Source of the DNA: Bacteroidales bacterium
Lineage (GTDB): Bacteria; Bacteroidota; Bacteroidia; Bacteroidales; UBA7960
DNA: 64,000 nucleotides
Direction: 5' to 3'
NCBI GenBank assembly: GCA_031323845.1
Contig: JAVIYP010000006.1
Location: 6,982-70,981 of the forward strand
Part shown: one piece after another, positions 47,839-63,166 of the stretch
Numbering within the stretch: position 1 is the first letter of the stretch
Layout: each line of letters begins with the position of its first letter
Translations under genes and position numbers: made by a program
Notes under the pieces: generated by a model
What the model saw: the letters and a program-made list of their open reading frames with translations, nothing else
Database searches by the model: none
Told to the model about the DNA's origin: nothing

Positions 47839-48846
47839 TCACCCCGAGGCCCGTACTTTCAGGAAGGCCGGAAATACTTTTGTCCTGAATTCTTTTGCCG
47901 GTTCCCCTGAAAGTCGCTGTATAAGCATCCTTGCCGCCTCCTTGCCAATATCGTATCCACGCTGCTCCACAGTAGTCAGGGCAGGGTGTACCACTGATGC
48001 GATGGGATCGTCACCGAAACCGGCGACAGCGATTTGTCCCGGCACTTCATAACCATGATCCTGCAACAGGCGCATGGCGGCCACCGCAGTAAAATCATTG
48101 ACGGCAAAGATGGCATCAGCTTCGGTTATTAACGACAGCAATTTACTGCCAAGCTGTTTTACCCGCGCAGGGGTGTCGCATTTCAGCACCCATTCTTCAC
48201 GCTCCTCAACACCGTGCTCCTGGAGTGCTTCCACATATCCGCGGTATCGTTCGCGGCCCACACAGAGGTGTTGTGGACCTGCCAAATGGATGATGTTCCT
48301 GCGGCCTGTTTTCAGGAGATGGGATACCACCATGCGCGCGCCTTCAAAATCGTTGGTCAGCACCCGGTCGGAGTCAATTTCAGGACTGGCCCTGTCCATA
48401 AACACAACAGGGATCTCCTGTTCAACCAGGCGCCGGAGGTGAGCGTGGTCGCGGGTACTCTTACTGATCGACAACAGAATTCCATCCACCCTGTGGTCAG
48501 TCAAGGCCGCCACATTGATCACCTCACGGTGATAGTCCTCGTTCGACTGACAAATGATGACCCTGTATCCCTGGCCATACGCAACCTCTTCAATGCCGCT
48601 GATCACCGAAGAAAAGAAATGATGCACAATTTCAGGAATGACCACCCCGATCGTAAAAGATTTCTGTTGTTTTAATCCAAGGGCGATGACATTCGGCCGG
48701 TAGTTTACCTTACGTGCATACTCCTGTATGCGCCGGCATGTAGCCTCGCTGATTTCAGGATGGTTTTTCAGCGCCCGTGAAACCGTTGAGGGTGAAACAC
48801 CAAATTCGCGGGCTATATCACTTATGGAAACCTGTGGCGACTTCAT
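47839..48846 (-). CDS. LacI-family transcriptional regulator, divergent from susC
   Basis: HTH ISDIAREFGVSPSTVSRAL, hinge YRPN..A..L, and motifs VAGFGD and LTTV.Q. Confidence 0.96.
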   Translation of the reverse strand: MKSPQVSISDIAREFGVSPSTVSRALKNHPEISEATCRRIQEYARKVNYRPNVIALGLKQQKSFTIGVVIPEIVHHFFSSVISGIEEVAYGQGYRVIICQSNEDYHREVINVAALTDHRVDGILLSISKSTRDHAHLRRLVEQEIPVVFMDRASPEIDSDRVLTNDFEGARMVVSHLLKTGRRNIIHLAGPQHLCVGRERYRGYVEALQEHGVEEREEWVLKCDTPARVKQLGSKLLSLITEADAIFAVNDFTAVAAMRLLQDHGYEVPGQIAVAGFGDDPIASVVHPALTTVEQRGYDIGKEAARMLIQRLSGEPAKEFRTKVFPAFLKVRASG

Positions 48847-49180: not shown

Positions 49181-52162
49181 ATGACAAAACCAATCAAGAA
49201 CATGATTCCTTTGCTATTGGCGCTTTTTATGGCGACTGTGGCATGGGGACAAAGAGGCACGGTTACCGGTGTTGTCAGTGACGCCCAAACAGGCGAGACA
49301 CTGCCCGGTGCCAACGTCGTCATTCAGGGCACTACGATCGGTACAGTGACCGATATTGACGGACAATACAGTCTGGATGTGTCTGCCGGCGAAGTTACTC
49401 TGGTAGCCAGCTTCCTCGGCTACAATCCATCGGTACGTACCATCAATATTGGTGCCGGTGAACTTCTTACCATCAACTTTCCTCTTGAGCTTGACATTGC
49501 AACGCTTGAGGAGTTCGTGATTATTGGTTACGGTGTGCAGCGCCGTGAAGATGCCACAGGTTCTGTGGCGGTTGTAGGTGAGCGCGACTTCAACAGGGGT
49601 AACATCACCACTCCTGCCGAGCTGTTGCGCGGAAAGATGCCCGGCGTGCAAATTACCTCTGCCGGTGGTGCACCAGGGACCGGTGAAACCATTAGGATCA
49701 GGGGTGGGTCATCTCTTGATGCCGATAACAACCCGCTGATCGTTATTGATGGTGTACCCATTGAAAGTGCTGGCGTTCCCGGGTTGAGAAACCCCCTGTC
49801 TACCATCAACCCCAGCGACATCGAGACCTTTACCGTACTGAAAGACGCTTCTGCAACAGCCATTTACGGGTCGAGGGCGTCAAACGGGGTAATCATCATC
49901 ACAACAAAAAAGGGTCAGAAAGACATGCCCCTTCAATTTGATTATTCAGGTTCATTTTCGCTTGCGCAGAACATCCGGACCGTTGATGTGTTAAACGCTG
50001 ATGATTTTCGTCAGATCGTGCAGGAAAGGTATGAGGGAAGAACAAGCGTACTGAACATGTTAGGCACTGCCAGCACCAACTGGCAGGATCATATCTTCCA
50101 GGATGCATTCTCACACGACCACTTGCTGAGCGCCAGGGGTGCTTACAGGAATGTCCCCTATCGCATATCTATAGGATATAAAGCAGAAGAAGGCGTCCTG
50201 CAAAGAGACCACATTGAACGTACATCACTGGCTGTAAACCTTAGCCCCACATTGTTCGACAATCACCTGAATGTCAACCTCAATGTCAGGGGTGTAAACA
50301 TCAACAACCAGTTTGCCAATGAAGGCGCTATCGGGTCAGCTGTTAGCTTCGATCCTACAAAACCGGTCAGGGTTGACAGTCCGAACTTCGGAGGTTACTA
50401 TACCTGGCTCGAAGGAGACATGCCCATCACTTATGCCATTAACCCTGTTGCACTCCTTGACCTTACCAACAATGATTCGAATGTAAAAAGACTCATTGGA
50501 AATGCCCAGCTGGAATACAAGGTCCACTGGCTCCCGGAACTTACGGCTAACATGAACGTGGCTTACGACTATTCCGAGTCGGAAGGAAACAACTTCACCC
50601 CCGATTATGCACCATGGGCTTATGTGTCCGGAGGTTCAATCGGCAGGTACGGTCAGGAAAGAAAAAACCAGCTGTTCGATTTTTACCTGAATTATGCTAA
50701 CGAAATTCCGGGCCTGAACAGTCGTTTCGATGTGATGGCCGGTTACTCGTACCAGTATTTCTGGAACAAGGGATACAATTTCTCAAGCAATATTGAAGGT
50801 AATATTTTCGGCACGGAATACCGCATCTTCGACGACCTGGAGTATGAATCTGACCTTGTGCTGATTTCTTTCTTCGGCCGTATGAACTATTACCTGATGG
50901 ACCGTTACCTGTTTACCTTCACCTTACGTAACGACCATACTTCAAGGTTCTCTGCCGATACCCGGTCAGGCGTATTTCCATCAGCAGCCTTTGCCTGGCG
51001 TATCGACAAGGAAAACTTCATGGACAACCTTGACTTTTTCAACGAACTCAAGCTGAGGCTTGGATGGGGTGTTACCGGTCAGCAAAATATCGGACACGGC
51101 AACTATCCTTACCTTGCACGCTACACCAGGAGCCGCGAGGGCGCACGTTATCCTTTCGGCAACGTATTTCTTGACACCTGGCGCCCGGAAGGTTATGACA
51201 GCGAGATCAAGTGGGAAGAAACAACCACCTATAATGCCGGTATCGATTATGGTCTTTTCGGCGACAGGTACTATGGCTCCATTGACTTCTATTTCCGTGA
51301 AACCAGGGACCTGATCAACGTAATCCCGGTTCCTGCAGGTACCAACCTGACAAACTTTATTCTGACCAATGTCGGAAACATGGAAAACACCGGTGTGGAG
51401 TTCAGCATCTTTACCCGCCCCATTGTCACCAGAGACTTCAGGTGGGAGTTGGGGCTCAACGCCACCTGGAACGACACCAAAATTACCAGGCTGACTGCCG
51501 TGGATGACCCCAACTACCCCGGAACCCAGGAAGGATTTATTTCCGGCGGCGTAGGAAACAGAATACAAATCCACAGCGTAGGCTATACACCCTATACCTT
51601 CTGGGTATATCAGCAGGTATACGATGAAAATGGAAATCCGATCGAAGGGCTTTATGTCGACCGAAATGGTGACGGCGAAATCACCTCCGAAGACCTCTAT
51701 CGTTTCAAAAGCCCCATGCCGACATACTACCTTGGCATCACCTCCGAGTTCCTTTACAAGAACTGGAGTTTTGCTTTTGCCGGTCGTGCCAATTTTGACA
51801 ACTGGGTTTACAATAACGTAAGCTCAGTGAACGGTGAATTAAGCAGGTTGTTCCGTCCGGAAGGACCGTACCTGAGCAACATTACAAGTGATGCACTCGA
51901 CGTAAACTTCAACCAGGCACGCTATCTGTCCGATTATTACATCCAGAACGGCTCCTTCTTCAAAATGGATCACATCACACTGGGTTATAACTTCTTCAAT
52001 GTAATGGGTACCGGAGCTAACCTGAACGTATCAGCCATCGTTCAGAATGCATTTACCATTACAAAATACGATGGGCTGGATCCGGAGGTTCACAGCGGAA
52101 TCGATAACAACATCTATCCGCGTCCCAGGACCTTTGTCCTGAACGTCAACCTCCAGTTTTAA
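49181..52162 (+). CDS. susC: SusC-family TonB-dependent transporter
   Basis: N-terminal extension, IRIRGGSS, PLIVIDG, VLKDASATAIYGSRASNGVI, KWEETT and terminal F. Confidence 0.97.
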   Translation: MTKPIKNMIPLLLALFMATVAWGQRGTVTGVVSDAQTGETLPGANVVIQGTTIGTVTDIDGQYSLDVSAGEVTLVASFLGYNPSVRTINIGAGELLTINFPLELDIATLEEFVIIGYGVQRREDATGSVAVVGERDFNRGNITTPAELLRGKMPGVQITSAGGAPGTGETIRIRGGSSLDADNNPLIVIDGVPIESAGVPGLRNPLSTINPSDIETFTVLKDASATAIYGSRASNGVIIITTKKGQKDMPLQFDYSGSFSLAQNIRTVDVLNADDFRQIVQERYEGRTSVLNMLGTASTNWQDHIFQDAFSHDHLLSARGAYRNVPYRISIGYKAEEGVLQRDHIERTSLAVNLSPTLFDNHLNVNLNVRGVNINNQFANEGAIGSAVSFDPTKPVRVDSPNFGGYYTWLEGDMPITYAINPVALLDLTNNDSNVKRLIGNAQLEYKVHWLPELTANMNVAYDYSESEGNNFTPDYAPWAYVSGGSIGRYGQERKNQLFDFYLNYANEIPGLNSRFDVMAGYSYQYFWNKGYNFSSNIEGNIFGTEYRIFDDLEYESDLVLISFFGRMNYYLMDRYLFTFTLRNDHTSRFSADTRSGVFPSAAFAWRIDKENFMDNLDFFNELKLRLGWGVTGQQNIGHGNYPYLARYTRSREGARYPFGNVFLDTWRPEGYDSEIKWEETTTYNAGIDYGLFGDRYYGSIDFYFRETRDLINVIPVPAGTNLTNFILTNVGNMENTGVEFSIFTRPIVTRDFRWELGLNATWNDTKITRLTAVDDPNYPGTQEGFISGGVGNRIQIHSVGYTPYTFWVYQQVYDENGNPIEGLYVDRNGDGEITSEDLYRFKSPMPTYYLGITSEFLYKNWSFAFAGRANFDNWVYNNVSSVNGELSRLFRPEGPYLSNITSDALDVNFNQARYLSDYYIQNGSFFKMDHITLGYNFFNVMGTGANLNVSAIVQNAFTITKYDGLDPEVHSGIDNNIYPRPRTFVLNVNLQF

Positions 52163-52183: not shown

Positions 52184-53764
52184 ATGAAAAGCATTAAGAA
52201 AATAGCTATAATAATTGCCGCGCTGATGATTTCCTTTTCATCCTGTATGAAGGACCTGGATACAGTTCCTTTGGATGGCAATGAAATCACGGCTGCTGAT
52301 GTTTTTAACGATCCGAACGCCTATCGTGAGATACTTGCCAAACTGTATGCAGGACTGGCAGTATCCGGTCAGCAGGGCCCCGCAGGGATGGCCGATATCA
52401 GCGGTATCGATGAAGGTTTTGGTCAATACCTGAGAGCCGTTTACTATCACCAGGTGCTCACCACCGATGAGGCGGTAATAGGTTGGGACGACCAAACCAT
52501 CAAAGACCTGGTTTACCACAGCTGGACAGCCAGCGACGTGTTTGTTTCTGCCATGTACTACCGCATTTTTTACCAGATTGCGCTGGCCAACGAATACATC
52601 CGTCAGACCACCGACGACAAACTCGACGAAAGAGGAGTAAGCGGAGCGCTCAGAGATCAGATTAAAGTTTACAGGGCCGAAGCACGCTTCCTTCGTGCAT
52701 TCAGCTACTGGCATGCGCTTGATATCTTCGGCAATGTTCCCTTCGTTACTCCTGAACATCCCATTGGAGCGTTCCTGCCCGAGCAGATTATGCGTGCAGA
52801 GCTGTTTTTACATCTTGAGGAAGAACTCCTGGAGATTTATCCTTCAATGGCGGAAGCACGCGCCAACGAATACGGCAGGGTCGACAGGGCCGCCGCATGG
52901 ATGCTGCTTGCCAAGCTTTATATGAACGCCGAAACTTATGCAAATCAGCAAAGGTACACGGACGCGTTAACGTACCTGAACCTGATCATAGATGCCGGCT
53001 ACGCGCTTGAGGATGAGTACCTGCATCTTTTCAATGCCGATAACCATTTGAGCACCAACGAAATCATCATGAGAGTGCCTTATCATGGCATTGAAACCCA
53101 AACCTATGGCGGTACTACCTTCGTCATTAAGGCAAGTATCGGTGGCGATATGGTGCCTGCTCATTCCGGAGTGAATGAAGGTTGGGGCGGTCTTCGCACC
53201 ACACCCGAATTTGTCTCGCTCTTTCATAATGACGACCCGAGAGCGCTGTTTTTTACGGACGGTCAAACGCTCAACATCCCCAATCTTTCTGACTTCCAGA
53301 ATGGTTATGCAGTGCGTAAGTTTACGAACATGACGCGCGACAACCAACCGGGAAGCAACCTTGAGTTCCCCGACACTGACTTTCCGGTATTCCGCCTGGC
53401 CGATGTGTACCTGATGTATGCCGAGGCCGTGCTCAGAGGCGGCAGTGGTGGCGACATGGCCACGGCACTGAACCTCGTCAACCAGATCAGAGAAAGAGCA
53501 TGGGGCGATAACTCGGGCAACATCACCGCCGGACAGTTAACCCTCGACTTTATCCTCGATGAACGTGGCCGGGAACTCTACTGGGAAGGACACAGAAGAA
53601 CAGACCTGATACGCTTTGGCCGATTTACCGGCAATGCCTATGTCTGGGCATGGAAAGGACAAACACCGAATGGTCTTCCTACAGATTCAAGGTTTAACCT
53701 CTTCCCGATACCGGACTCTGATGTGAACGCAAACCCCAACCTGGAACAAAACCCGGATTATTAA
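52184..53764 (+). CDS. susD: SusD-family glycan-binding lipoprotein (starch-type)
   Basis: Lipobox FSSC and motifs EARFLRA, FRLADVYLMYAEA, ERGRELYWEGHRRTDLIRFG and QNP.Y. Confidence 0.96.
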   Translation: MKSIKKIAIIIAALMISFSSCMKDLDTVPLDGNEITAADVFNDPNAYREILAKLYAGLAVSGQQGPAGMADISGIDEGFGQYLRAVYYHQVLTTDEAVIGWDDQTIKDLVYHSWTASDVFVSAMYYRIFYQIALANEYIRQTTDDKLDERGVSGALRDQIKVYRAEARFLRAFSYWHALDIFGNVPFVTPEHPIGAFLPEQIMRAELFLHLEEELLEIYPSMAEARANEYGRVDRAAAWMLLAKLYMNAETYANQQRYTDALTYLNLIIDAGYALEDEYLHLFNADNHLSTNEIIMRVPYHGIETQTYGGTTFVIKASIGGDMVPAHSGVNEGWGGLRTTPEFVSLFHNDDPRALFFTDGQTLNIPNLSDFQNGYAVRKFTNMTRDNQPGSNLEFPDTDFPVFRLADVYLMYAEAVLRGGSGGDMATALNLVNQIRERAWGDNSGNITAGQLTLDFILDERGRELYWEGHRRTDLIRFGRFTGNAYVWAWKGQTPNGLPTDSRFNLFPIPDSDVNANPNLEQNPDY

Positions 53765-53805
53765 TCAATATGCAGTACCGATCATTCATTAAAAACACAT
53801 ATAAA

Positions 53806-54897
53806 ATGAAAAAGACAGCATTTCTATTCTCTCTTTTTGCAGTGGCAATCTTGTTTGTCGCCTGTGAAAAAGATCAAGAGAACCCTGTGCTTACCATTGG
53901 AGAATCAAATCCACCCGAACTGATCAGTCCGGGCCCGGGATCATCTTTTGATCTCGAAACGTATGAAGGCGACATTGACTTTGAATGGACAGAAGCCGAT
54001 TACAACGCCGACTATCTGCCCGCAATAAGGTACCGGTTGCTGGCCTACGTCACTGAGCAGGATGGTGACTTCCGTGAGCATTCCTTTGTGGTTCATGAAA
54101 CCTCAGGCACTTCCGCAAGCATCCCCGCATCAACCCTGAATCAGTCAATTTTCCAACTTGGCGTGATGCCATTTAATTTTGAAAACATCTCCTTCCGGGT
54201 GAAGTCTTTCTTTAACCTGGATTCGGAAGCCACCTGGCTCTATTCCGACGCCCTGGAACTTGAACTGAGAGGCTTTGAACTGTTTACCTTTGTCAGGGTT
54301 CCGGGCTCCTACAACGACTGGGACTATGACAACGAAGGAACAGTGCTCTATTCGCCCGAAGCAGACAACCAGTTTGAAGGATATCTCTATTTTGAAGACG
54401 ACAACACTGAAGTGCTTTTCTCAATGGGTGCTTCAGGACTATTCGTTTTTGGCGACAATGACGGTGATGGCACGCTTGACCAGGACGGTGCCCACATCGT
54501 AATACCCCAGGCCGGTGTTTACAGGGTGAACCTGGATTTCAGCGCCATGACCTATACCTTCTACAGAACGGAATGGGCCTTGATAGGCTCAGCAGTCGAG
54601 GGCTGGAACACCGATGTACCCATGGATATGGACCAGGAGTTCTGGGAAGAAAACTGGAAGGTGCGCTATGTGATCACCCGCGATTTCGTTGTCGGTGCCT
54701 TTAAGTTCAGGGCTAACGGCGCCTGGGATCCCCCGGCGGGTATCAACATGGGCTACGACGTAGACTCCGAGGAGGAAGGTGTGTTGCAATATGGCGGATT
54801 CGGAAACGATATCCCGATTGATGCCGACGGTGTTTATACCGTAACCTTTGACCTTTCCGGTCCGGTGTACCGGTATGAAGTGGAGGCTGCCGATTAA
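53806..54897 (+). CDS. SusE/SusF-like surface lipoprotein
   Basis: Lipobox FVAC followed by acidic EKDQE; CBM-like repeats VPGSY..W, W.LIGSA..GW..D and FKFRAN..W. Confidence 0.85.
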   Translation: MKKTAFLFSLFAVAILFVACEKDQENPVLTIGESNPPELISPGPGSSFDLETYEGDIDFEWTEADYNADYLPAIRYRLLAYVTEQDGDFREHSFVVHETSGTSASIPASTLNQSIFQLGVMPFNFENISFRVKSFFNLDSEATWLYSDALELELRGFELFTFVRVPGSYNDWDYDNEGTVLYSPEADNQFEGYLYFEDDNTEVLFSMGASGLFVFGDNDGDGTLDQDGAHIVIPQAGVYRVNLDFSAMTYTFYRTEWALIGSAVEGWNTDVPMDMDQEFWEENWKVRYVITRDFVVGAFKFRANGAWDPPAGINMGYDVDSEEEGVLQYGGFGNDIPIDADGVYTVTFDLSGPVYRYEVEAAD

Positions 54898-54921
54898 AAA
54901 GCAGCATAGCTTATTATACGG

Positions 54922-54961
54922 CAAATGCTGCCAGGGTTCTTCCTGGCAGCATTTGTTTTTT
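54922..54961 (+). terminator. Intrinsic terminator after susE
   Basis: CAAATGCTGCCAGG/CCTGGCAGCATTTG 14-bp stem followed by a T run. Confidence 0.85.
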
Positions 54962-55149
54962 AAGGACACATCCTGCGCACCGAAAGAGCCTTTATTTACT
55001 AAAAAACTTGTATTTTTGAAAGATACAGGAGGTGAAAAAAAATCATGCCTTCATAGCTCGTTTCTTGTCAATGCCGCTGAGCCCATTAATAAGCAGTATT
55101 GACATAACACTGTATTTTTGAATTGATTCATTGGAAAAAGTCCATCATC

Positions 55150-57462
55150 ATGACGTTGTTAAACAAACCTCCGGATATCGCTTCCCCGTTCAGGAATTTC
55201 GAAAACATACTCTACCTGGCCAGCACCCTGGAACACTTTGACGGTGTGAAAAGGTCCGGCCGGATACTTTACAAAAGGCACATCCATCAAACACTGATGT
55301 CTTTTAACAGCATGGATACCCACTTATCCGCTGTTGAACAGAATGAATTTCCCCCCGACGAGTACGAAGCCTCACCCCTGCTGCCTTTTTCCATTGAATT
55401 CATAAGTGACAGAAGCATCAGGATAAAAATTCATTCCACCCAGCAAATGCCGGTGGCCGTCCGGGAGGACGACGTAATGCTGACCGGAGAATATGCCCGG
55501 AACGATGCCTCCAGGCTGTGGAAATATTCAAAAACAGAGGAAGGCCATAAATACACAGGTCCCAGTGGCGCTGTCGTCATCCATGAAGATCCCTGGCGCA
55601 TTGAGATCCTGGACAAAAAAGGCACGACCTTGTGCAACACCGTACATCAGGCCGATAACGACACTACCTTCACTCCGCTGATTCCCTTTGGCTGGCTGAG
55701 GCGCGCTTCTGACTACTCACGCAGCTTTTCCGCAGCGTTTTCCTTGCATCCGGGTGAAAAAATATTCGGGTATGGTGAGTTTTATACCGGCTTCGACAGG
55801 CGCGGCCAGGAAATCCAGCTTTTTACCGATGATGCCAGGGGCTCTCAGAATGAGAAAAGCCACAAACCGGTGCCCTTCTTTATGAGTAACAGGGGATACG
55901 GCATGTTTGTACACACCTCGGCACCTGTTTGCTGCGATGTCGGGAAATATTACAGCGGCTTGCATTCCATATTTACCGGGGATGACGAACTTGACCTGTT
56001 CATTTTTATCGGCACACCAAAAGACATCCTTAATGAATACACCAACCTTACCGGAAAGGCCGGCATGCCGCCGCTATGGTCGTTTGGTTTCTGGATGAGC
56101 CGCATCACCTATTTTTCAGAAGAAGAGGGTCGCGAAACGGCCAAAAAACTGAGGGAACATAAACTCCCGTCCGACGTGATCCATTTCGACTCGGGCTGGT
56201 TTGAAAAGGACATCCGTTGTGATTATGAGTTCTCTTCAAGCAATTTCCGCGACCCGGAAAAAATGATTGCCGACCTCCGCGAGGATGGCTTCAGGGTGAG
56301 TCTCTGGCAACTTCCTTACTTTGTTCCGAAAAACAAATGGTACAGGGAGATCCTTGAAAAAGGACTATATGTGAAGGATGGGAAAGGCAATCCCCCTTAC
56401 GAGGATGTCATCCTCGACTTCACGAATCCGGAGGCCGTGGCTTGGTTGCAGGAAAAACTGGCCCGGCTGTTAAAGATGGGTGTGTCGGCCATCAAGGCTG
56501 ACTTTGGGGAGGCTGCTCCTGTAAACGGCATATACCACAACGGCAGAAGCGGCTTCTACGAGCACAACCTTTACCCCACAAGATACAACAAGGCGGTGGC
56601 CGGAGTTACCGAAGAGGTTACCGGTGAGCACATTATCTGGGCGCGCAGCGGCTGGGCAGGAAGCCAGCGTTACCCGGTGCACTGGGGTGGCGATGCCTGC
56701 ACCTCTGACACGGGTATGGCCGGAGTATTGAGAGGCGGACTGAGCGCCGGCTTGTCGGGTTTTAGTTTCTGGAGTCATGATGTGGGCGGCTTCGTTGCAC
56801 AAACACCCGAAGACCTTTACCTCAGATGGGCGGCCTTCGGTGCGTTCTCATCACATATGCGAAGCCACGGGCAACCACCAAAAGAACCTTATGCCTATTC
56901 AGCCGGCGGACTGAACACCTTCAGGAAGATCCTGAATGTGCGCTACCGCCTGATGCCCTATATCTACGCCCAGGCAAAACACAGTGCCGAAAACGGCCTG
57001 CCGGTGATGCGCGCAGCATTTGTGGAATACCCTGACGATCCCGGTGCATGGACGCTCGACGATCAATACCTTTTTGGAGAAGACTTTCTTGTAGCGCCCC
57101 TCTTTGAAGCTGTGACATCAAGAAACGTATACCTGCCCGGAAAGCACCCCTGGACCGACTACCAGACCCGCAAAACCTATGAACCCGGCTGGCAGCATAT
57201 TCAAGCTGGTGAACTGCCGGTAATACTTCTGGTGCGCAGCGGGGCGCTCATACCGCACATACCACTGGCTCAATCAACTCAGTTCATGGACTGGTCAACC
57301 CTGGAGCTGAGCGCCTTCCCTGGTGAAGACGACAAGGCTACCGGCCGGATTTGTCTGCCCATGGACAATGTGCTTAAATCTATGACGGTGATCAAAACAA
57401 AAGATCGTTTGCTGCCTGAGACAGACCCATTCGATAAGAAGATCCATTTTATTATTCAGTAA
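55150..57462 (+). CDS. GH31 glycoside hydrolase (YicI-like alpha-glycosidase), no signal peptide
   Basis: PPLWSFGFW, nucleophile KADFGE, acid/base WGGD, WSHDVGGF, R.HG and QYLFG. Likely start at 55150. Confidence 0.92.
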   Translation: MTLLNKPPDIASPFRNFENILYLASTLEHFDGVKRSGRILYKRHIHQTLMSFNSMDTHLSAVEQNEFPPDEYEASPLLPFSIEFISDRSIRIKIHSTQQMPVAVREDDVMLTGEYARNDASRLWKYSKTEEGHKYTGPSGAVVIHEDPWRIEILDKKGTTLCNTVHQADNDTTFTPLIPFGWLRRASDYSRSFSAAFSLHPGEKIFGYGEFYTGFDRRGQEIQLFTDDARGSQNEKSHKPVPFFMSNRGYGMFVHTSAPVCCDVGKYYSGLHSIFTGDDELDLFIFIGTPKDILNEYTNLTGKAGMPPLWSFGFWMSRITYFSEEEGRETAKKLREHKLPSDVIHFDSGWFEKDIRCDYEFSSSNFRDPEKMIADLREDGFRVSLWQLPYFVPKNKWYREILEKGLYVKDGKGNPPYEDVILDFTNPEAVAWLQEKLARLLKMGVSAIKADFGEAAPVNGIYHNGRSGFYEHNLYPTRYNKAVAGVTEEVTGEHIIWARSGWAGSQRYPVHWGGDACTSDTGMAGVLRGGLSAGLSGFSFWSHDVGGFVAQTPEDLYLRWAAFGAFSSHMRSHGQPPKEPYAYSAGGLNTFRKILNVRYRLMPYIYAQAKHSAENGLPVMRAAFVEYPDDPGAWTLDDQYLFGEDFLVAPLFEAVTSRNVYLPGKHPWTDYQTRKTYEPGWQHIQAGELPVILLVRSGALIPHIPLAQSTQFMDWSTLELSAFPGEDDKATGRICLPMDNVLKSMTVIKTKDRLLPETDPFDKKIHFIIQ

Positions 57463-57475
57463 AGACCTCTGTCAC

Positions 57476-58471
57476 ATGAACAAAACGCTTCTTCTGGAAC
57501 GGCTTATCAGGGGCGAACCTCTTGAAAAAACCCTGTTTTCGCCCATATTGATGCATTTTGCTGCCCGCCATGCGGGACAAACCTACGGTGCATTTGCTGC
57601 TGACCATAAGGTGCTGGTGGAGGCAAACATAAAAGCTATGAACGATTTCGGTATGGACATGGTATCGCTGATATCGGATCCCTATCGCGAAACCGCTGCA
57701 TTTGGCGCTCGGATCGAATTCCCTGCGGAAGAGGTGCCCAGGTGTACAGGCTGTGTGATCAAAACCCCGGACGACATTCACAAACTTGAAGTGCCTGACG
57801 TATACCGTAACGAACGTACGCTCGACCGCATCAAAGGAGCGGAAATGTATCAGCATCTGCTGAAGGGGGAGGTGCCGGTAATAGGCTGGATTGAAGGCCC
57901 CCTGGCAGAAGCGTGCGATCTTGCCGGTGTCTCTGACATGCTGATGATGCTCATGATGGACCCGGAGTCTTCCGAAGTGCTCCTGGACAAGTGCCTTGAG
58001 ATGGCAAAGAACTTTTCCAAAGCGCAGCTTGACGCAGGTTGCCGCATCATTGGCATGGGTGATGCCGTGTGCTCTCAAATCGATGCAGGCACTTACGACA
58101 CCTTTGTCCGCGACAGGCACAAAGAGATCATCTCCTTTGTTCATGAACACGGAGGCCTTGTAAAACTGCATATTTGCGGCAATATAACCCATCTTCTTCC
58201 ATCCATCAGTGAGCTGCACGCCGACATTGTTGACCTCGACTGGCAGGTTGGCCCCGGGGAGGCCCGAAAAATACTTGGAGAAAAGGTGATATTGTGTGGC
58301 AATATCAATCCGGTGCTTGTGCAGGACCTTTCTGCCGAAGAGGTTTACAGCCAGGCAAAAGAGCTGGTTGACAGCCAGAAAGGACAGCGGTTCATCCTCT
58401 CTGCCGGATGTGAGATTACGGTGAACACGCCTGCTGACAACCTCATGGCCATGAGAAGAGCATCAGAATAA
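57476..58471 (+). CDS. MtaA/CmuA-like methyltransferase (UroD fold)
   Basis: E..AFG and GP motifs, with Zn ligands LHICG and SAGCE. Confidence 0.85.
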   Translation: MNKTLLLERLIRGEPLEKTLFSPILMHFAARHAGQTYGAFAADHKVLVEANIKAMNDFGMDMVSLISDPYRETAAFGARIEFPAEEVPRCTGCVIKTPDDIHKLEVPDVYRNERTLDRIKGAEMYQHLLKGEVPVIGWIEGPLAEACDLAGVSDMLMMLMMDPESSEVLLDKCLEMAKNFSKAQLDAGCRIIGMGDAVCSQIDAGTYDTFVRDRHKEIISFVHEHGGLVKLHICGNITHLLPSISELHADIVDLDWQVGPGEARKILGEKVILCGNINPVLVQDLSAEEVYSQAKELVDSQKGQRFILSAGCEITVNTPADNLMAMRRASE

Positions 58472-58595: not shown

Positions 58596-59279
58596 ATGAG
58601 CCCGTCTGAACTTTTAGCTCGCATTGCCCATTGCATTGAATTCGGAAAAATCAACGGTCCGTCGCCCTATCCTCCGGATATGAAAGGGCAGGATGGCGCT
58701 GACGAGTACACACAACGGGCGCTGCAATCGGGTGTCAGTGCACAGGACGTTCTGCTTAAGGGCCTGATCGTGGGAATGGAGAAGGTGGGAAAAAAATTCA
58801 GGGACAACCTGGTTTTTGTGCCCCAGGTGCTTATGTCGGCAAAAGCCATGAATACGGCTATGGTTCACCTGGAGCCTTATTTTTCATCCGGGGAGATAAA
58901 ATCGCGGGGCACGTTCATTATCGGCACCGTGGCAGGCGACTTGCACGATATTGGAAAAAACCTGGTGTCCATGATCATGAAAGGCAATGGCTGGAAGGTT
59001 GTTGATCTGGGTATGGATGTCAGTACTGAAAAGTTCATGGAAAGCATCAGGCAACATCCTGAAGCTGTCGTCGGCCTGTCCGCCCTGCTTACCACCACTA
59101 TGGTGAATATGCAAAAAACGGTGGAGCACATTAAAGCTGAGCTGCCCGGCACCCTTGTTGCCATTGGCGGGGCGCCTGTCACGCAGGCCTTTTGTGATCA
59201 AATCGGCGCCGACGTTTACTCTCCCGACCCCCAGGGGTTGGTGGAGTACCTCGATAATTTGAATGTATCGTTAAACTAG
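58596..59279 (+). CDS. Corrinoid (B12-binding) methyl-carrier protein
   Basis: Cap motif GM..VG..F....FVP, DLHDIGKNLV (DxHxxG), LSALLTTT and IGGAP. Confidence 0.95.
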   Translation: MSPSELLARIAHCIEFGKINGPSPYPPDMKGQDGADEYTQRALQSGVSAQDVLLKGLIVGMEKVGKKFRDNLVFVPQVLMSAKAMNTAMVHLEPYFSSGEIKSRGTFIIGTVAGDLHDIGKNLVSMIMKGNGWKVVDLGMDVSTEKFMESIRQHPEAVVGLSALLTTTMVNMQKTVEHIKAELPGTLVAIGGAPVTQAFCDQIGADVYSPDPQGLVEYLDNLNVSLN

Positions 59280-59355
59280 TAGTGTTGACATGACACTAGT
59301 GCTGCCGGCATTTATGAGATCAGAGAAATCGCGGGCGCACACAAAAACAAAGAAC

Positions 59356-60723
59356 ATGACAGGAAAAGAAAGAATCCGGAAAGCATTTACCTTAATGACT
59401 ACTGACCAGACGCCGTGGGTGCCTTTTGCAGGAGTGCACTGTGCATTCCTGAGCGGCCTGCCGGCTGATGAATATCTAAAAAGCGAAGGGCATATAATCC
59501 GTGGCGTTGGCAGGGCCGTCGAGCTGTATGAACCTGACGGTATTCCTGTGGTTTTTGACCTCCAGGTTGAAGCCGAAGTGCTGGGATGCCAGCTGAAGTG
59601 GGTCAGCGACAACCCTCCTGCCGTCGTATCTCATCCGCTGGCAGAAGGTCTAACCCTTGAGCAACTACCGGAATTCAACAAACAGCAGGGACGAATTCCT
59701 GTTTGTCTCTCCGCCGCAACCGAACTCAGGAAAAAATTCCCTGACATTGCCCTCTATGGCCTCGTAACCGGTCCGTTTACACTGGCCGTGCACCTGGCCG
59801 GCACAAACATCTTCATGCAGATGATGGAAGATCCCGAAACAGTGACTGAAATCCTGACCTATTGCAGTGGCATCACGAAAAAAATGGCCTCCTGGTATCT
59901 TGAAGCCGGATGCGATGTGATTGCCGTGGTTGACCCCATGACCAGCCAGATCGACCCGGTGTCGTTTGAACAGTTTGTCAGTCATCCCATCAGTGATGTG
60001 TTTCAAAAGATCCGCGAACAACATGGACTCAGTTCATTTTTTGTGTGCGGATTTGCACAGCACAACATAGAAGCCATGTGTAAATGCCGGCCCGATAACA
60101 TTTCCATTGACGAAAATATTCCGCTCGACTTTGTAAAGGAGATGGCGGCGAAATACGGCCTGAGCTTCGGCGGCAACCTTAAGCTGACCTCGGTGCTTTC
60201 GCTGGGATCTGTTCAGGACGTTGAAAAACACACCCTGGAAACCATGGAACTGGGTGGTGAAACTGGCTTTATCCTTGCGCCGGGCTGTGACCTTGTGATG
60301 GATACCCCTGTTGAAAACCTTCAGGCGGTTACCCAAACCGTATTAAAGAGGCATCATGCTGTTGATTCACAGGAGGCGCAAAAAAATGTGCCCGAAACAG
60401 AACATGAAGCTTTTAAAAAACGATGGAAAAAGGATAAGGTCATCATTGACATTATCACGCTCGATTCTTCCAGCTGTGCACCCTGCCAGTACATGTTTAA
60501 AGCCGTAACGCTGGCCGCAGAGGGTTTTGGCGACAAGGTCATCTGCAAAGAAAACAGCATCAAAACAAAAGAAGGGCTGCAGCTGATGGAAGCCCTTGGC
60601 GTGCGTAATGTCCCGGTAACCGTAATTGACGGAGAGATCTGTTTTGTTTCACAAATACCTCCCAGGGCTGACTTAGAGGAAGCCATCAGGGAAAAACTCA
60701 GGCAAAAAGGCCTGATCCGGTAA
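59356..60723 (+). CDS. MtaA/UroD-fold methyltransferase fused to a C-terminal thioredoxin-like CxxC domain
   Basis: DLQVEAE.LGC, GPFTLA, FFVCG and APGCD, then a tail with SCAPCQYM...NVP..VIDG. Likely start at 59356. Confidence 0.85.
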   Translation: MTGKERIRKAFTLMTTDQTPWVPFAGVHCAFLSGLPADEYLKSEGHIIRGVGRAVELYEPDGIPVVFDLQVEAEVLGCQLKWVSDNPPAVVSHPLAEGLTLEQLPEFNKQQGRIPVCLSAATELRKKFPDIALYGLVTGPFTLAVHLAGTNIFMQMMEDPETVTEILTYCSGITKKMASWYLEAGCDVIAVVDPMTSQIDPVSFEQFVSHPISDVFQKIREQHGLSSFFVCGFAQHNIEAMCKCRPDNISIDENIPLDFVKEMAAKYGLSFGGNLKLTSVLSLGSVQDVEKHTLETMELGGETGFILAPGCDLVMDTPVENLQAVTQTVLKRHHAVDSQEAQKNVPETEHEAFKKRWKKDKVIIDIITLDSSSCAPCQYMFKAVTLAAEGFGDKVICKENSIKTKEGLQLMEALGVRNVPVTVIDGEICFVSQIPPRADLEEAIREKLRQKGLIR

Positions 60724-60736
60724 AACACATAACCTA

Positions 60737-61417
60737 ATGATCAGGGTGCACACCTTCTCTTTTGACAGCCTTGGAATAACATCCGGTGATCTTGAAGAAT
60801 TCATAGGATACTTTCCGGGAAGCAGCATGGCCGCGTTCACCGGGAGTTATGAGCAAGCGCTGTCAGAAGCTGCTGAACTTTGCCGTATCGAAGCCGGATA
60901 CCGCTGTTTTGAAGATGTTTCGGTCGGCAACAGTTATGTGCTTCTGGACAACAAAAGATTGCTGACGGGCAAGCTGATCAATCAGCAATTAACCGGAGCT
61001 TCGGGCGCTGCGGTGTTTGTTTGCACCGCCGGAAGCAAGATCACTGATGTCTCGAAACAGTATGCGGCTGACAACAATGAGCTGATGGCTTACCTGCTGG
61101 ATGTGACAGGATCGGTTTGTGCCGAAAAGGCGGCTGACCTCCTGGAGGACAAATTGCTTGAAGAGCTGAGAGAAGAAGGCTACGGTCTCAGCAACCGATG
61201 CAGCCCGGGTTATTGCGGCTGGGATGTGGCCGAACAGCACAAGCTGTTTTCACTGCTTCCGGATAATTTTTGCGGTGTCAGCCTCACCGCATCCTCGCTG
61301 ATGCATCCCATAAAATCCGTAAGCGGAATCATCGGATACGGACCAAACGCCGGACTATCGGAACGACCCTGTCATCAATGCCGTCAAACACAATGCATAT
61401 ACAAAAAAGCAACCTGA
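60737..61417 (+). CDS. Stand-alone MetH-type (SAM-dependent) B12 reactivation domain protein
   Basis: FVCTAG, D..GS..AE, R.SPGYC.W, M.PIKSVSG, and a C-terminal CxxCxxxxC. Confidence 0.85.
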   Translation: MIRVHTFSFDSLGITSGDLEEFIGYFPGSSMAAFTGSYEQALSEAAELCRIEAGYRCFEDVSVGNSYVLLDNKRLLTGKLINQQLTGASGAAVFVCTAGSKITDVSKQYAADNNELMAYLLDVTGSVCAEKAADLLEDKLLEELREEGYGLSNRCSPGYCGWDVAEQHKLFSLLPDNFCGVSLTASSLMHPIKSVSGIIGYGPNAGLSERPCHQCRQTQCIYKKAT

Positions 61418-61543
61418 CCCGGCCATATGGATGCCGTGACGGCAACCGGGCACGCTGACAGCGAACGACAACAGCAGAGGCGCCCGAACCGCTGTATATT
61501 CATTACCTTACATACATATTGTCGCATCAAAAAAAAAACAATC

Positions 61544-63166
61544 ATGCTGACTTTGAAACTAAAACAATCAATCCTGCTATTGTTCATCCTGTTTGCTGCA
61601 TGTATTCAGCAGTCCTGTGCTGACCGGCAAAAGCAGGACCGTAGCGAAAAACCCGACTGGAACAATGAAATCATTTACCATGTGATGCAGCGAAGTTTTT
61701 ATGATTCGAGCGGGGACGGGCACGGTGATCTTAACGGCGTTGTCCAGAAGCTGGATTATCTTGAAGAACTGGGTGTTACCACCATTTTATTCCTGCCGCT
61801 TTACGAGTCAGACTTCTATCACAATTATTTTCCTATCGACTATGAGCGTATCGACCCGCGTTACGGCACCATGGATGATTACCTGGCGTTTGTAAAAGCC
61901 GTGCACGACAGAGGTATGAAATTTATTATGGATATGGAAACCCAGTATGTGCAAAATGGGAATCACTGGTTCGAAGATTCGTACAAAAACCCCGGGTCGC
62001 CCTATTCGGACTTTATTTATTACAGCGATGATGAGCAGCACTATCCCGAACAATTTCTAAGGGCTTCGGGCGAAGAGTTATACACTTACCGGGCCTGGCC
62101 CGACCAGGAGTTGCACATCTTTCACCTTGATATGAATCATCAGACGGTGAAAGACTACATGAAGGATTACTATGCTTTCTGGGTTGACCCAAAAGGTGAT
62201 GGCAGCCTTGAAGGCGGTGTGGACGGCTTCCGCATTGACCACATTATGGATGACCTTGACTATAAAGGCATCTTTACGAACCTGTACACCGATTTCTGGA
62301 AACCTGTGTTCGATCATGTGAAAGCCATCAATCCAAATCTTTTTATTGTTGGTGAGCAGTCGAACTGGGCCTCCTATGGCGATGAGATGATGGAGAAAAG
62401 TGGTGCGGATGCCAGCTTTGGCTTCCTGGTGCGCTATGCTATTGCAGATGCGATGATGTCAGACGCTGATGATGCACCCGGTGCTACCAATATTGCTCAA
62501 TTCATAAAAAACACCCTTGACCACATACCGGACGATAAATTCTATGTTCACTTTATTGAAAACCATGACATTCCGAGGTGGGCAAGCGAAATGAAGGGGC
62601 ATGAACGTAAAAAAAGATGCGGCGCAATACTCACCCTGCTGTTGCCCGGCATCCCATCCATATATTACGGCCAGGAACTGGGGGTCACGGGCAAGGTATA
62701 CGACTGGAGTTACGATGTAAACCATATTCCGGTCAGGGAAGCCTTTCCGTGGACGCCCGATCCGAATGATAAGGGGATCGCTGCTTTCTATAAAGACACG
62801 GGGCCCTGGTGGGATGTCAGTTATTTCAACACCGGCAAGGCTGAAGCATTTGCCCTTTCCAAACAAAAAAACGACAAGAACTCACTTTGGCATCTGTACA
62901 AGGACCTTATTGAATTCAGGAAACAGACGCCGGCGCTTACACACGGGGATTTTAACATCATCCGGCCCGGCGATGACAGGCTTTTTGCCTTTTCGCGAAG
63001 CAAGGGAGAAGAAAGCGTGCAGGTTTTTATGAACCTGTCAGAGAAACCCATGTCGGTTGATGTTATGAAGCTTGGCGATGTCCGGTTTATCGAAGATGCA
63101 GTCATCCTTGAGGGAGGCATACACCTGGATGCATACGGATTCGTGGTTTTTGCGGGAGGAATTTAA
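61544..63166 (+). CDS. GH13 alpha-amylase-family lipoprotein
   Basis: Signal peptide with Cys, DS.GDG.GDLNG, catalytic DGFRID / GE / NHD, and PSIYYGQE. Likely start at 61544. Confidence 0.92.
   Translation: MLTLKLKQSILLLFILFAACIQQSCADRQKQDRSEKPDWNNEIIYHVMQRSFYDSSGDGHGDLNGVVQKLDYLEELGVTTILFLPLYESDFYHNYFPIDYERIDPRYGTMDDYLAFVKAVHDRGMKFIMDMETQYVQNGNHWFEDSYKNPGSPYSDFIYYSDDEQHYPEQFLRASGEELYTYRAWPDQELHIFHLDMNHQTVKDYMKDYYAFWVDPKGDGSLEGGVDGFRIDHIMDDLDYKGIFTNLYTDFWKPVFDHVKAINPNLFIVGEQSNWASYGDEMMEKSGADASFGFLVRYAIADAMMSDADDAPGATNIAQFIKNTLDHIPDDKFYVHFIENHDIPRWASEMKGHERKKRCGAILTLLLPGIPSIYYGQELGVTGKVYDWSYDVNHIPVREAFPWTPDPNDKGIAAFYKDTGPWWDVSYFNTGKAEAFALSKQKNDKNSLWHLYKDLIEFRKQTPALTHGDFNIIRPGDDRLFAFSRSKGEESVQVFMNLSEKPMSVDVMKLGDVRFIEDAVILEGGIHLDAYGFVVFAGGI

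Follow-up and report, generated by a model that had tools for sequence, protein, structure and literature searches.

What is cleaved by an enzyme of glycoside hydrolase family 13 (GH13) that has lost the region-I histidine with which the family hydrogen-bonds O6 of the −1 glucose, and that is encoded at the end of an operon for corrinoid-dependent methyl transfer? This question is raised by a stretch of 64,000 nucleotides, in the following called the window, from a Bacteroidales bacterium of GTDB lineage UBA7960 (assembly GCA_031323845.1, contig JAVIYP010000006.1, positions 6,982 to 70,981 of the forward strand). An earlier note, written from the sequence alone, had pointed out that region I of this GH13, normally D-x-x-x-N-H, reads DMETQY, and had proposed an active enzyme with a −1 subsite remodelled for a 6-O-substituted, for example 6-O-methylated, glucose. 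Sequence comparisons indicate that the QY pair closing this motif is the signature of a separate, sizeable and uncharacterised GH13 branch. As to its function, we give an even chance to the reading that the window protein is an active, lipoprotein-anchored, retaining α-glycosidase specialised for O-methylated, probably 6-O-methylated, α-glycans. The narrower proposal, a 6-O-methyl group at the −1 subsite of an α-glucan, is tentative and in our view somewhat doubtful.

The replacement in region I is borne out by the codons (gat atg gaa acc cag tat, within RGMKFIMDMETQYVQNGNHWF of the translation) and by HMMER alignments to solved GH13 enzymes, in which DMETQY falls, gap-free and with top posterior marks, onto DLPINH of Halothermothrix orenii AmyA (1wza) and DLVINH of a Thermotoga petrophila amylase (5m99), and YHNY onto YHGY. 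Thus, Tyr occupies the position of the region-I His and Gln that of the Asn. No His is hidden at this place: the alignments to solved GH13 amylases contain no insertion able to supply an alternative, and the nearby His of NGNHWF is variable in homologues (N, I, K, R, V or H). The accompanying change of YHGY to YHNY was found as the earlier note had described it, in the form YHNYF, whose second Tyr corresponds to the residue that in GH13 forms the stacking contact with the −1 sugar. Nothing is missing from the catalytic set of Asp, Glu, Asp and Arg, and GFRIDH, GEQ and ENHD align with the catalytic residues of 1wza and 5m99. The −1 subsite is remodelled, its O6-binding position being without His.

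A region I that ends in Asn-His is highly conserved in GH13 rather than strictly defining, and its His is regarded as near-universal. By its profile match, its barrel and its Arg-Asp-Glu-Asp set the window protein belongs to the family, and the Asn-His pair is what it lacks. PF00128 matches residues 86-507 with an E value of 1.5e-59, an AF2 model based on a 57-sequence alignment (pLDDT 95.2) has the GH13 fold, and the top Foldseek matches of this model are all GH13, the best being 1wza, 7jjn and 5m99 (E values 7e-36 and below, about 24-26% identity). With 1wza and 5m99 (sequence matches at 1e-40 and 4e-39), which are presumably 'intermediate' α-amylases of subfamily GH13_36, the protein shares the (β/α)8 fold with domains B and C, the catalytic Asp, Glu, Asp and Arg, and the region-IV His. 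Unlike them, and at only about 24-26% identity, it has DMETQY for DL[PV]INH, YHNYF for YHGYD, a His after the nucleophile, a shortened region II, and a Gln and a two-residue insertion after the acid/base.

The open frame comprises 579 codons (61427-63166, plus strand) and extends upstream of Met40 to 61427. Met40 (61544) is probably the start, since it yields the lipoprotein-type signal MLTLKLKQSILLLFILFAAC and since it is also the first residue of the database representative P0002 (540 aa). The 39 codons before it (61427-61543; MDAVTATGHADSERQQQRRPNRC...) are open, look untranslated and overlap the 9-bp gap region after the preceding gene.

Chance can be excluded as the origin of DMETQY on account of its conservation among close homologues. 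In a set of 121 sequences, consisting of the query and its 120 best matches, all at least 50% identical, DMETQY occurs in 120 (the remaining one reads DMETQF), and YHNYF, R-x-D-H and NHD occur in every member; the source labels comprise Bacteroidota, Rhodothermales and Saprospiraceae records and one Cyanothece record. A wider HMMER search of 1.84 billion cluster representatives returned 18,409 proteins at E values up to 0.001, and the best 150 were aligned with the query. Region I was covered in 143 of these 151 rows and ended in NH in 71, QY in 46, YG or YQ in 13, HY in three and other pairs in ten. All 46 QY representatives fall inside one clade, and in a quick IQ-TREE tree 96 QY-type rows are split from the NH-type outgroups with an SH-aLRT support of 99, so that QY is confined to a separate clade and is not a variant common in ordinary amylases. 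Other positions change along with region I: a His after the nucleophile is present in 44 of the 46 QY rows and in none of the 70 NH rows listed, and the QY rows mostly have the Asn of YHNY as well. The enzyme looks active, in line with the earlier proposal, since no substitution of the catalytic D, E, D and R or of the region-IV His occurs across the clade in a 57-sequence alignment spanning down to 32% identity. The hallmark of the clade would then be a rebuilding of the −1/+1 subsites in concert (YHNYF, DMETQY, His after the nucleophile, Gln after the acid/base) around a retained catalytic machinery. The clade is environmentally widespread, and its distribution is patchy, with a match at E up to 1e-100 in 10 of 400 sampled other genomes of the phylum. 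No solved structure falls inside it, the best sequence match being 1wza, and in the open-access literature no paper was found on the clade or on the motifs DMETQY, YHNYF and GFRIDH.

Variant forms were seen in and around the clade. One subclade (loci L034, L067, L095/L097 and L098) has DME[IV]HY in region I, with a His at the Asn/Gln position and the Tyr retained; GH31 adjoins in two of its loci, and a URO-D gene lies just downstream in L095/L097. A neighbouring GH13 group (P0172, P0173, P0176, P0182, P0187 and others) reads AYHGYQH, DLVxYG[IV]S, GFRLDH, FAEQxDW and GDHDVDR; it is without the region-I Asn-His, has the His after the nucleophile as in the QY clade, and is another uncharacterised branch. 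Giant multidomain forms of 1,600-1,900 aa carry the QY-type GH13 module at the C-terminal end (L070, L073, L102 and L112; protein P0126).

The surroundings of the gene bring methyl groups into the question. The GH13 is encoded in a Sus-like polysaccharide utilisation locus (PUL; Table 1), with SusC, SusD, a SusE-like gene, GH31, GH13 and a LacI-type regulator, all recognised through Pfam. It is the final gene of a tightly packed plus-strand operon with the order GH31, URO-D, corrinoid protein, URO-D with thioredoxin-like domain, activation-like protein, GH13. Since a strong hairpin with U-run ends susCDE, the unit from GH31 to GH13 probably has its own transcript; in a promoter and terminator consensus scan the operon yielded no more than shuffled sequence did, and this hairpin was not listed. 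For the GH31 the best NCBIfam match is an α-xylosidase model (488 bits, cutoff 606), and the best PDB matches are the α-glucosidase 5f7c (3e-125) and then YicI (1e-107). The C-terminal domain of the second methyltransferase has a C-x-x-C motif (Pfam Thioredoxin_3, with a weak NCBIfam match to 'HUIPC motif thioredoxin-like (seleno)protein'), so that the methyl acceptor might be a thiol or selenol, or the domain might have a redox role. The MetH-activation-like protein, for which there was no NCBIfam match, has a Cys-rich C-terminal tail and occupies the place at which a RACE-type ATPase activator is usual in corrinoid systems; neither a RACE-type activase nor a pterin-binding methyltransferase was seen in the operon with NCBIfam. 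The remainder of the window, from 1 to 47 kb, holds housekeeping genes (Na+-NQR, Mla, tRNA synthetase and others).

Table 1 Features of the GH13 gene and of the surrounding locus in the window
Feature	Position	Strand	Basis
LacI-family regulator, upstream of the locus	47839..48846	-	Pfam
SusC	49181-52162	+	Pfam
SusD	52184-53764	+	Pfam
SusE-like gene	53770-54897	+	Pfam
17-bp hairpin with U-run after the SusE-like gene, likely terminator	54920..54962	+	Fold -28.9 kcal/mol, z -7.7
GH31 glycosidase, operon gene 1, no signal peptide (N-terminus read)	55150..57462	+	Pfam GH31 domains
MtaA/CmuA-like methyltransferase 1, URO-D superfamily	57476..58471	+	PF01208 2e-62; TIGR01463 135.8 bits, cutoff 235
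Corrinoid (B12-binding) protein	58596..59279	+	PF02310 and PF02607; nearest models MtgC / pyl_corrinoid, below cutoff
MtaA/CmuA-like methyltransferase 2, C-terminal thioredoxin-like domain	59290..60723	+	PF01208 and PF13192; NCBIfam
MetH-activation-domain-like protein, presumed corrinoid reactivation factor	60737..61417	+	PF02965 9e-11
GH13 gene, QY clade	61544..63166	+	Likely start Met at 61544; open reading frame list and translation
Lipoprotein-type signal peptide, last residue the lipobox Cys	61544..61603	+	Read from translation
YHNYF instead of YHGY-D/W	61817..61831	+	Translation and HMMER alignment
Region I, DMETQY instead of D-x-x-x-N-H	61931..61948	+	Codons
Region II, GFRIDH: invariant Arg, nucleophile Asp (62237-62239), clade-specific His; shortened loop replaces A-x-K-H	62225..62242	+	
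Region III, GEQ: acid/base Glu (62354-62356), clade-specific Gln; two-residue insertion before Trp	62351..62359	+	
Region IV, FIENHD: His and transition-state Asp (62567-62569), both canonical	62552..62569	+	

The arrangement is retained in the nearest relatives. GH13s that are 63-77% identical to the window protein keep the order GH31, URO-D, corrinoid protein, URO-D, CobW-type GTPase, activation-like protein, GH13 (L002, L004, L005, the metagenome locus L043, partial L003, and L015 with L001, from one metagenome-assembled genome, MAG). These operon-type GH13s form a tree clade of seven rows with a support of 100, of which five have the corrinoid set and two lie on short contigs. L004 also has SusC/D/E, with SusC and SusD 75-76% identical to those of the window, and in L043 a 70%-identical LacI gene adjoins the homologous operon. 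The CobW/ZigA-like metallochaperone GTPase between methyltransferase 2 and the activation-like gene (L002 4469-5437, L004 8303-9199, L005 4595-5587, L043 5584-6498) has no counterpart in the window or in L015.

In having two URO-D methyltransferases and a B12-binding carrier in one operon, the set is similar to MtaA/MtbA with their cognate corrinoid proteins, to the aryl O-demethylases of acetogens and to the mlp clusters (Kountz and Balskus). It differs from the known corrinoid systems in its reactivation partner, which is MetH-activation-like instead of a RACE ATPase, and in its position between two glycosidases in a Bacteroidota PUL. The text of the mlp paper mentions neither 'Bacteroid-' nor 'glycos-' (Kountz and Balskus), and no report of a corrinoid set inside a PUL was found in the open-access literature. 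The set is also singular in its own genome (2.89 Mb, 96.65% complete), where tblastn at 1e-8 detected no other URO-D, corrinoid-protein, activation-like or GH31 genes. With the same threshold no MetH-type gene was found there with the corrinoid-protein seed, and no second URO-D such as hemE.

If a corrinoid set accompanies the nearest relatives, what stands beside the other members of the clade? The survey covered 15 genome loci, ten regions from sampled genomes and the best 80 of 489 confirmed metagenome relatives, with neighbours mapped by BLAST seeds and Pfam/NCBIfam spot checks on crudely called open reading frames. Loci with at least 5 kb on each side of the GH13 were considered informative (n = 40), and neighbours were scored within 6 kb. 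A demethylase-type neighbour was present in 22 of these 40 loci, being an Fe/2-oxoglutarate dioxygenase of the PhyH family in 15, corrinoid in four, both in one (L033) and a P450 in two. The expectation that QY homologues co-occur with corrinoid genes thus holds for the nearest subclade and a few others, whereas elsewhere PhyH, CYP236A-like P450s and orthologues of the alcohol dehydrogenase (ADH) ZoADH are found instead. The link of the clade to methyl-group removal is in this sense stronger than the earlier note could know, but of a different form. The idea that the motif independently supports a methylated glucan is not supported in the form in which it was put, since DMETQY is a clade signature that is present also in loci without a nearby demethylase (18 of 40), and hence is not independent evidence peculiar to the window.

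Unlabelled clustering of all neighbours within 6 kb in 102 loci, after the duplicates L063 and L097 had been dropped, ranked AraC first (30 loci), followed by PhyH (21), a GH127-like protein (16), a 266-aa PF00756 esterase (11), GH31 (9), a larger esterase (9), URO-D (8), a ZoADH-like Zn-ADH (8), carbon-nitrogen (CN) hydrolase (7), corrinoid protein (5), CobW (5) and activation-like protein (5). The PhyH gene adjacent to the GH13 is the sole PF05721 gene of genomes G219 and G224, one of three in G287 and one of five in G383. Among solved structures it is closest to EvdO2 and 4xaa (E values 8e-11 and 6e-10), which we take to be oxygenases of oligosaccharide antibiotics. The partner types are found scattered across the two main branches of the GH13 tree, and one may take the place of another between close relatives: L056 with PhyH and L058 with a P450 belong to one clade of four rows (support 99), and a 285-aa TIM-barrel gene is common to both. 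In L033, genes for PhyH, URO-D, corrinoid protein and activation-like protein form one operon; a GH127-like gene lies on the same strand, and the GH13 is convergent. A fusion of the activation-like and GH127-like genes in this locus was considered and rejected, as it came from an over-extended reading frame in another frame; the genes are adjacent, not fused.

Some further neighbours deserve mention in their own right. Beside QY GH13s the second glycosidase is most often the divergent GH127-like protein (Pfam E values 1e-12 to 1e-17, weak NCBIfam match to aceric acid hydrolase), which occurs in L011, L033, L045-L047, L050, L055, L058, L074, L079-L082, L087 and L108 and partly alternates with GH31. 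GMC oxidoreductases occur near the GH13 in L065 (9709-12113), together with a gluconate-2-dehydrogenase subunit-3-like gene, and in L085 (5004-7682), together with a xylose-isomerase-like TIM barrel, which is reminiscent of oxidative (3-keto) glycoside cleavage. In L013 (8638-9564, a Pirellulaceae MAG) the QY GH13 is preceded, at a distance of about 350 bp, by a further gene that handles methyl groups, for a bona fide homocysteine S-methyltransferase (NF007020, 385 bits, cutoff 215). A glycerate-kinase-like gene (DUF4147 and MOFRL) lies about 600 bp upstream of the GH13 in L052 (5842-7158). In a subclade from freshwater and anaerobes (L007, L009, L011, L014, L045-L047 and L050) a CN hydrolase of the nitrilase superfamily is encoded immediately 5' of the GH13, so that the substrate may bear an N-acyl or amide decoration; several of these loci have a double PF00756 esterase.

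The P450 and ADH partners lead to a sugar ether demethylation system that has been studied experimentally. In L058 a P450 gene precedes the GH13 by about 1.2 kb and is followed by a 2Fe-2S ferredoxin gene; this P450 has a match to 6g5o at 7e-155 (next best 2e-42), and the P450 of L010 matches the same entry at 1.2e-99 (next best 1e-39). According to the text of the primary report, 6G5O and 6G5Q are P450ZoGa (CYP236A2) with 6-O-methyl-D-galactose, for which it is a demethylase (PMC6292453). The Zn-ADH of L066 matches ZoADH (8h2b) at 1.7e-155 and FoADH (8h2a) at 1.4e-153, with the next, non-marine match at 2e-52. Orthologues of ZoADH are present in eight loci (L064, L065, L066, L077, L078, L085, L101 and L120), 61-64% identical to the ADH of L066, and the ADH adjoins the small esterase wherever the neighbour map shows both genes. 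The text on Zobellia describes modules of CYP, redox partners, esterase and ADH, impaired growth on 6-O-methyl-galactose when the ADH or the CYP is deleted, and no formaldehyde detoxification by ZoADH (PMC10033563). An interpretation of 'Esterase2' and the ADH as a glutathione-dependent formaldehyde pair was also rejected for the QY loci, the FghA model giving 26-32 bits (cutoff 282) and the ADH staying below class-III cutoffs.

The similarity to the 6-O-methyl-D-galactose module of Zobellia and Formosa thus consists of homologues of its P450, ferredoxin and ADH, and an esterase, beside QY GH13s in other genomes. The window differs in that it has neither P450 nor ADH, with corrinoid methyltransferases instead; tblastn seeds for a CYP236A-type P450, ferredoxin/reductase, ZoADH-type ADH and esterase found nothing at 1e-8 in the window locus or in its genome. 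The marine modules, moreover, sit with GH2 and GH16 in agar and porphyran loci, and GH13 is not mentioned in the text of that report (PMC10033563).

The backbone of the substrate is indicated by the binding proteins. Among PDB entries the SusD of the window best matches 3jys (7.5e-102) and then 3ck7, the starch-binding SusD of Bacteroides thetaiotaomicron (2.5e-80), all others being at 3e-20 or weaker, and this starch type of SusD points to an α-glucan. SusC and SusD of the PhyH-type locus L066 and of the sulfatase/GH127-type locus L055 are 44-60% identical to those of the window. L066 further encodes SusE/F with X25 and SusF_SusE domains of the starch-binding type; this locus closes with an ordinary GH13, and in L010 an ordinary GH13 lies two genes upstream. 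As in the case of SusG of B. thetaiotaomicron, a lipoprotein GH13 is encoded with SusC/D/E-type genes; SusG structures are among the fold matches, and the SusG_C Pfam domain matches some members of the QY clade. SusG has a canonical region I. The window differs from that system in lacking the O6-binding His of the GH13 and in adding a GH31 and a corrinoid methyltransferase set.

From the motif, its conservation, the neighbourhoods and the homologies we infer a substrate, a role for the Tyr and Gln, and a demethylation chemistry. The most likely substrate would be an α-glucan-like glycan or oligosaccharide in which hexoses carry O-methyl groups, probably at position 6, and in which acyl or sulfate groups are often present as well. 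With the O6-binding His lost, the −1 subsite would no longer clamp a free O6-H, and the enzyme may accept, or even require, a substituent on O6. The lipoprotein GH13 would cut the glycan outside the cytoplasm, fragments would be imported through SusC/D, and the terminal methyl sugar would be freed by GH31 in the cytoplasm. The methyl group may then be loaded onto the Co(I) corrinoid protein by one MtaA-like enzyme and moved on by the other to an acceptor, for which the thioredoxin-like domain makes a thiol conceivable, with the activation-like protein rescuing oxidised cofactor. In this way the corrinoid set would demethylate without oxygen, in the same role as the CYP236A-type P450 or the PhyH-type dioxygenase beside the clade in aerobes. 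If the substrate is methylated, the GH13 would meet the methyl groups before they are removed, since it has a signal peptide and the GH31 and the methyl-transfer proteins have none.

For position 6 there are two independent hints: the replaced His is the ligand of O6, and those relatives of the P450 partners that have been characterised all act on a 6-O-methyl group. That a GH13 can take a glucose substituted at O6 into its −1 subsite has a conceptual precedent in trehalose-6-phosphate hydrolase (GH13_29, TreC/TreA), to which the window protein has a partial NCBIfam match (162 bits) and a fold match (5brq/5brp). It is far below the 799-bit cutoff of that model, and TreC/TreA, unlike the window protein, is cytoplasmic and retains the region-I His. 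Natural 6-O-methylglucose polysaccharides, partly esterified with short acyl groups, are described for mycobacteria (PMC9883506, PMC4555173). An acylated polymer of this kind would fit the esterases beside QY GH13s because of these acyl groups, although nothing links the locus to that polymer specifically.

Several observations weigh against a methylated substrate. A Tyr hydroxyl could still bond an unsubstituted O6, so that the motif alone does not demand a substituent. All matches of the methyltransferases and the corrinoid protein are below NCBIfam cutoffs, and no precedent was found in the open-access literature for corrinoid-dependent demethylation of a sugar (alkyl) methyl ether. With the seed set used, 18 of the 40 informative loci have no demethylase-type neighbour, and the counts are not independent events since the loci are phylogenetically related. 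Furthermore, the 6-O-methyl-galactose of porphyran is β-linked and thus offers no bond for cleavage by a GH13, and the characterised CYP236A relatives act, by the account cited above, on 6-O-methyl-galactose and not on the glucose derivative (PMC6292453).

The enzyme might accordingly be an ordinary starch, glycogen or maltodextrin hydrolase, with QY and YHNYF as neutral lineage variants, the Tyr hydroxyl bonding O6, and the methyl genes serving another purpose. Its fold and its nearest solved relatives, plain amylases and α-glucosidases (1wza, 5m99, 7jjn), would suit this, as would the starch-type SusD, the LacI regulator and the SusE-like gene. The contexts of some clade members also speak for it, being without special neighbours, beside a glycogen-phosphorylase-like gene (L039) or among housekeeping genes (L068, L072 and L121), which for the methylated-glycan reading are odd places. 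We nevertheless hold it to be unlikely. Five further GH13 genes, ordinary ones and at most 33% identical to the QY enzyme, are already present in the genome, and four coordinated active-site changes that are held down to about 35% identity argue for an altered specificity. The enrichment of PhyH, CYP236A-like, ZoADH-like and corrinoid neighbours is, moreover, far above chance given one to five PhyH genes per genome of 4-6 Mb.

An α-glycoside that carries non-methyl groups (sulfate, acyl) at O6 or elsewhere, or a methoxylated aromatic aglycone that is processed by the demethylases, esterases and ADH, would account for other neighbours. Sulfatases directly adjoin the GH13 in L010, L055, L058 and L061, and PF00756 esterases occur in about 20 loci, one of them resembling feruloyl esterase domains; these genes point to O-substituents other than methyl and hence also count against the methylated-glycan reading. 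Natural aryl glycosides are mostly β-linked, which disfavours an aromatic aglycone, and the best solved relatives of the PhyH neighbour, EvdO2 and 4xaa, are presumably sugar oxygenases. The P450s, too, are close to the sugar-specific CYP236A and not to aromatic O-demethylase P450s. Known corrinoid O-demethylases do act on aryl methyl ethers (PMC10418091). ZoADH and FoADH likewise favour aromatic aldehydes in vitro, and the text in question leaves the role of ZoADH unresolved, but the knockout phenotype of ZoADH concerns 6-O-methyl-galactose itself (PMC10033563). On balance we regard this explanation as improbable, to about the same degree as an ordinary hydrolase. A transglycosylase or isomerase such as trehalose synthase or sucrose isomerase, finally, is very improbable, for even though TreS N-terminal and TreC models give the best partial NCBIfam matches, and sucrose isomerases and TreS come right after the amylases in the Foldseek list, the scores fall well short of the cutoffs (173 bits where 678 are required) and the lipoprotein signal and SusC/D locus fit an extracytoplasmic depolymerase.

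A GH13 specialised for O-methylated α-glycans would have consequences for both the family and the organisms that carry it. It is conceivable, though we would not call it probable, that the QY GH13s are the missing glycosidases for 6-O-methylated α-glucans, by which we mean methylglucose-polysaccharide-like material and methylated microbial or algal glucans, and that they belong to a cross-phylum module in which demethylation is carried out by a P450, a PhyH enzyme or a corrinoid set, depending on the oxygen regime. To our knowledge, 6-O-methyl-galactose in marine bacteria that live aerobically is the one case in which degradation of O-methylated glycans has been described. If the proposal is true, a new specificity would be added to GH13, which is among the most studied enzyme families, and candidate enzymes would become available for the turnover of O-methylated glycans. 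The corrinoid set would be the first corrinoid-dependent carbohydrate O-demethylase and the anaerobic counterpart of CYP236A, and whether corrinoid methyltransferases can demethylate sugar methyl ethers in anaerobes is now a concrete, testable question.

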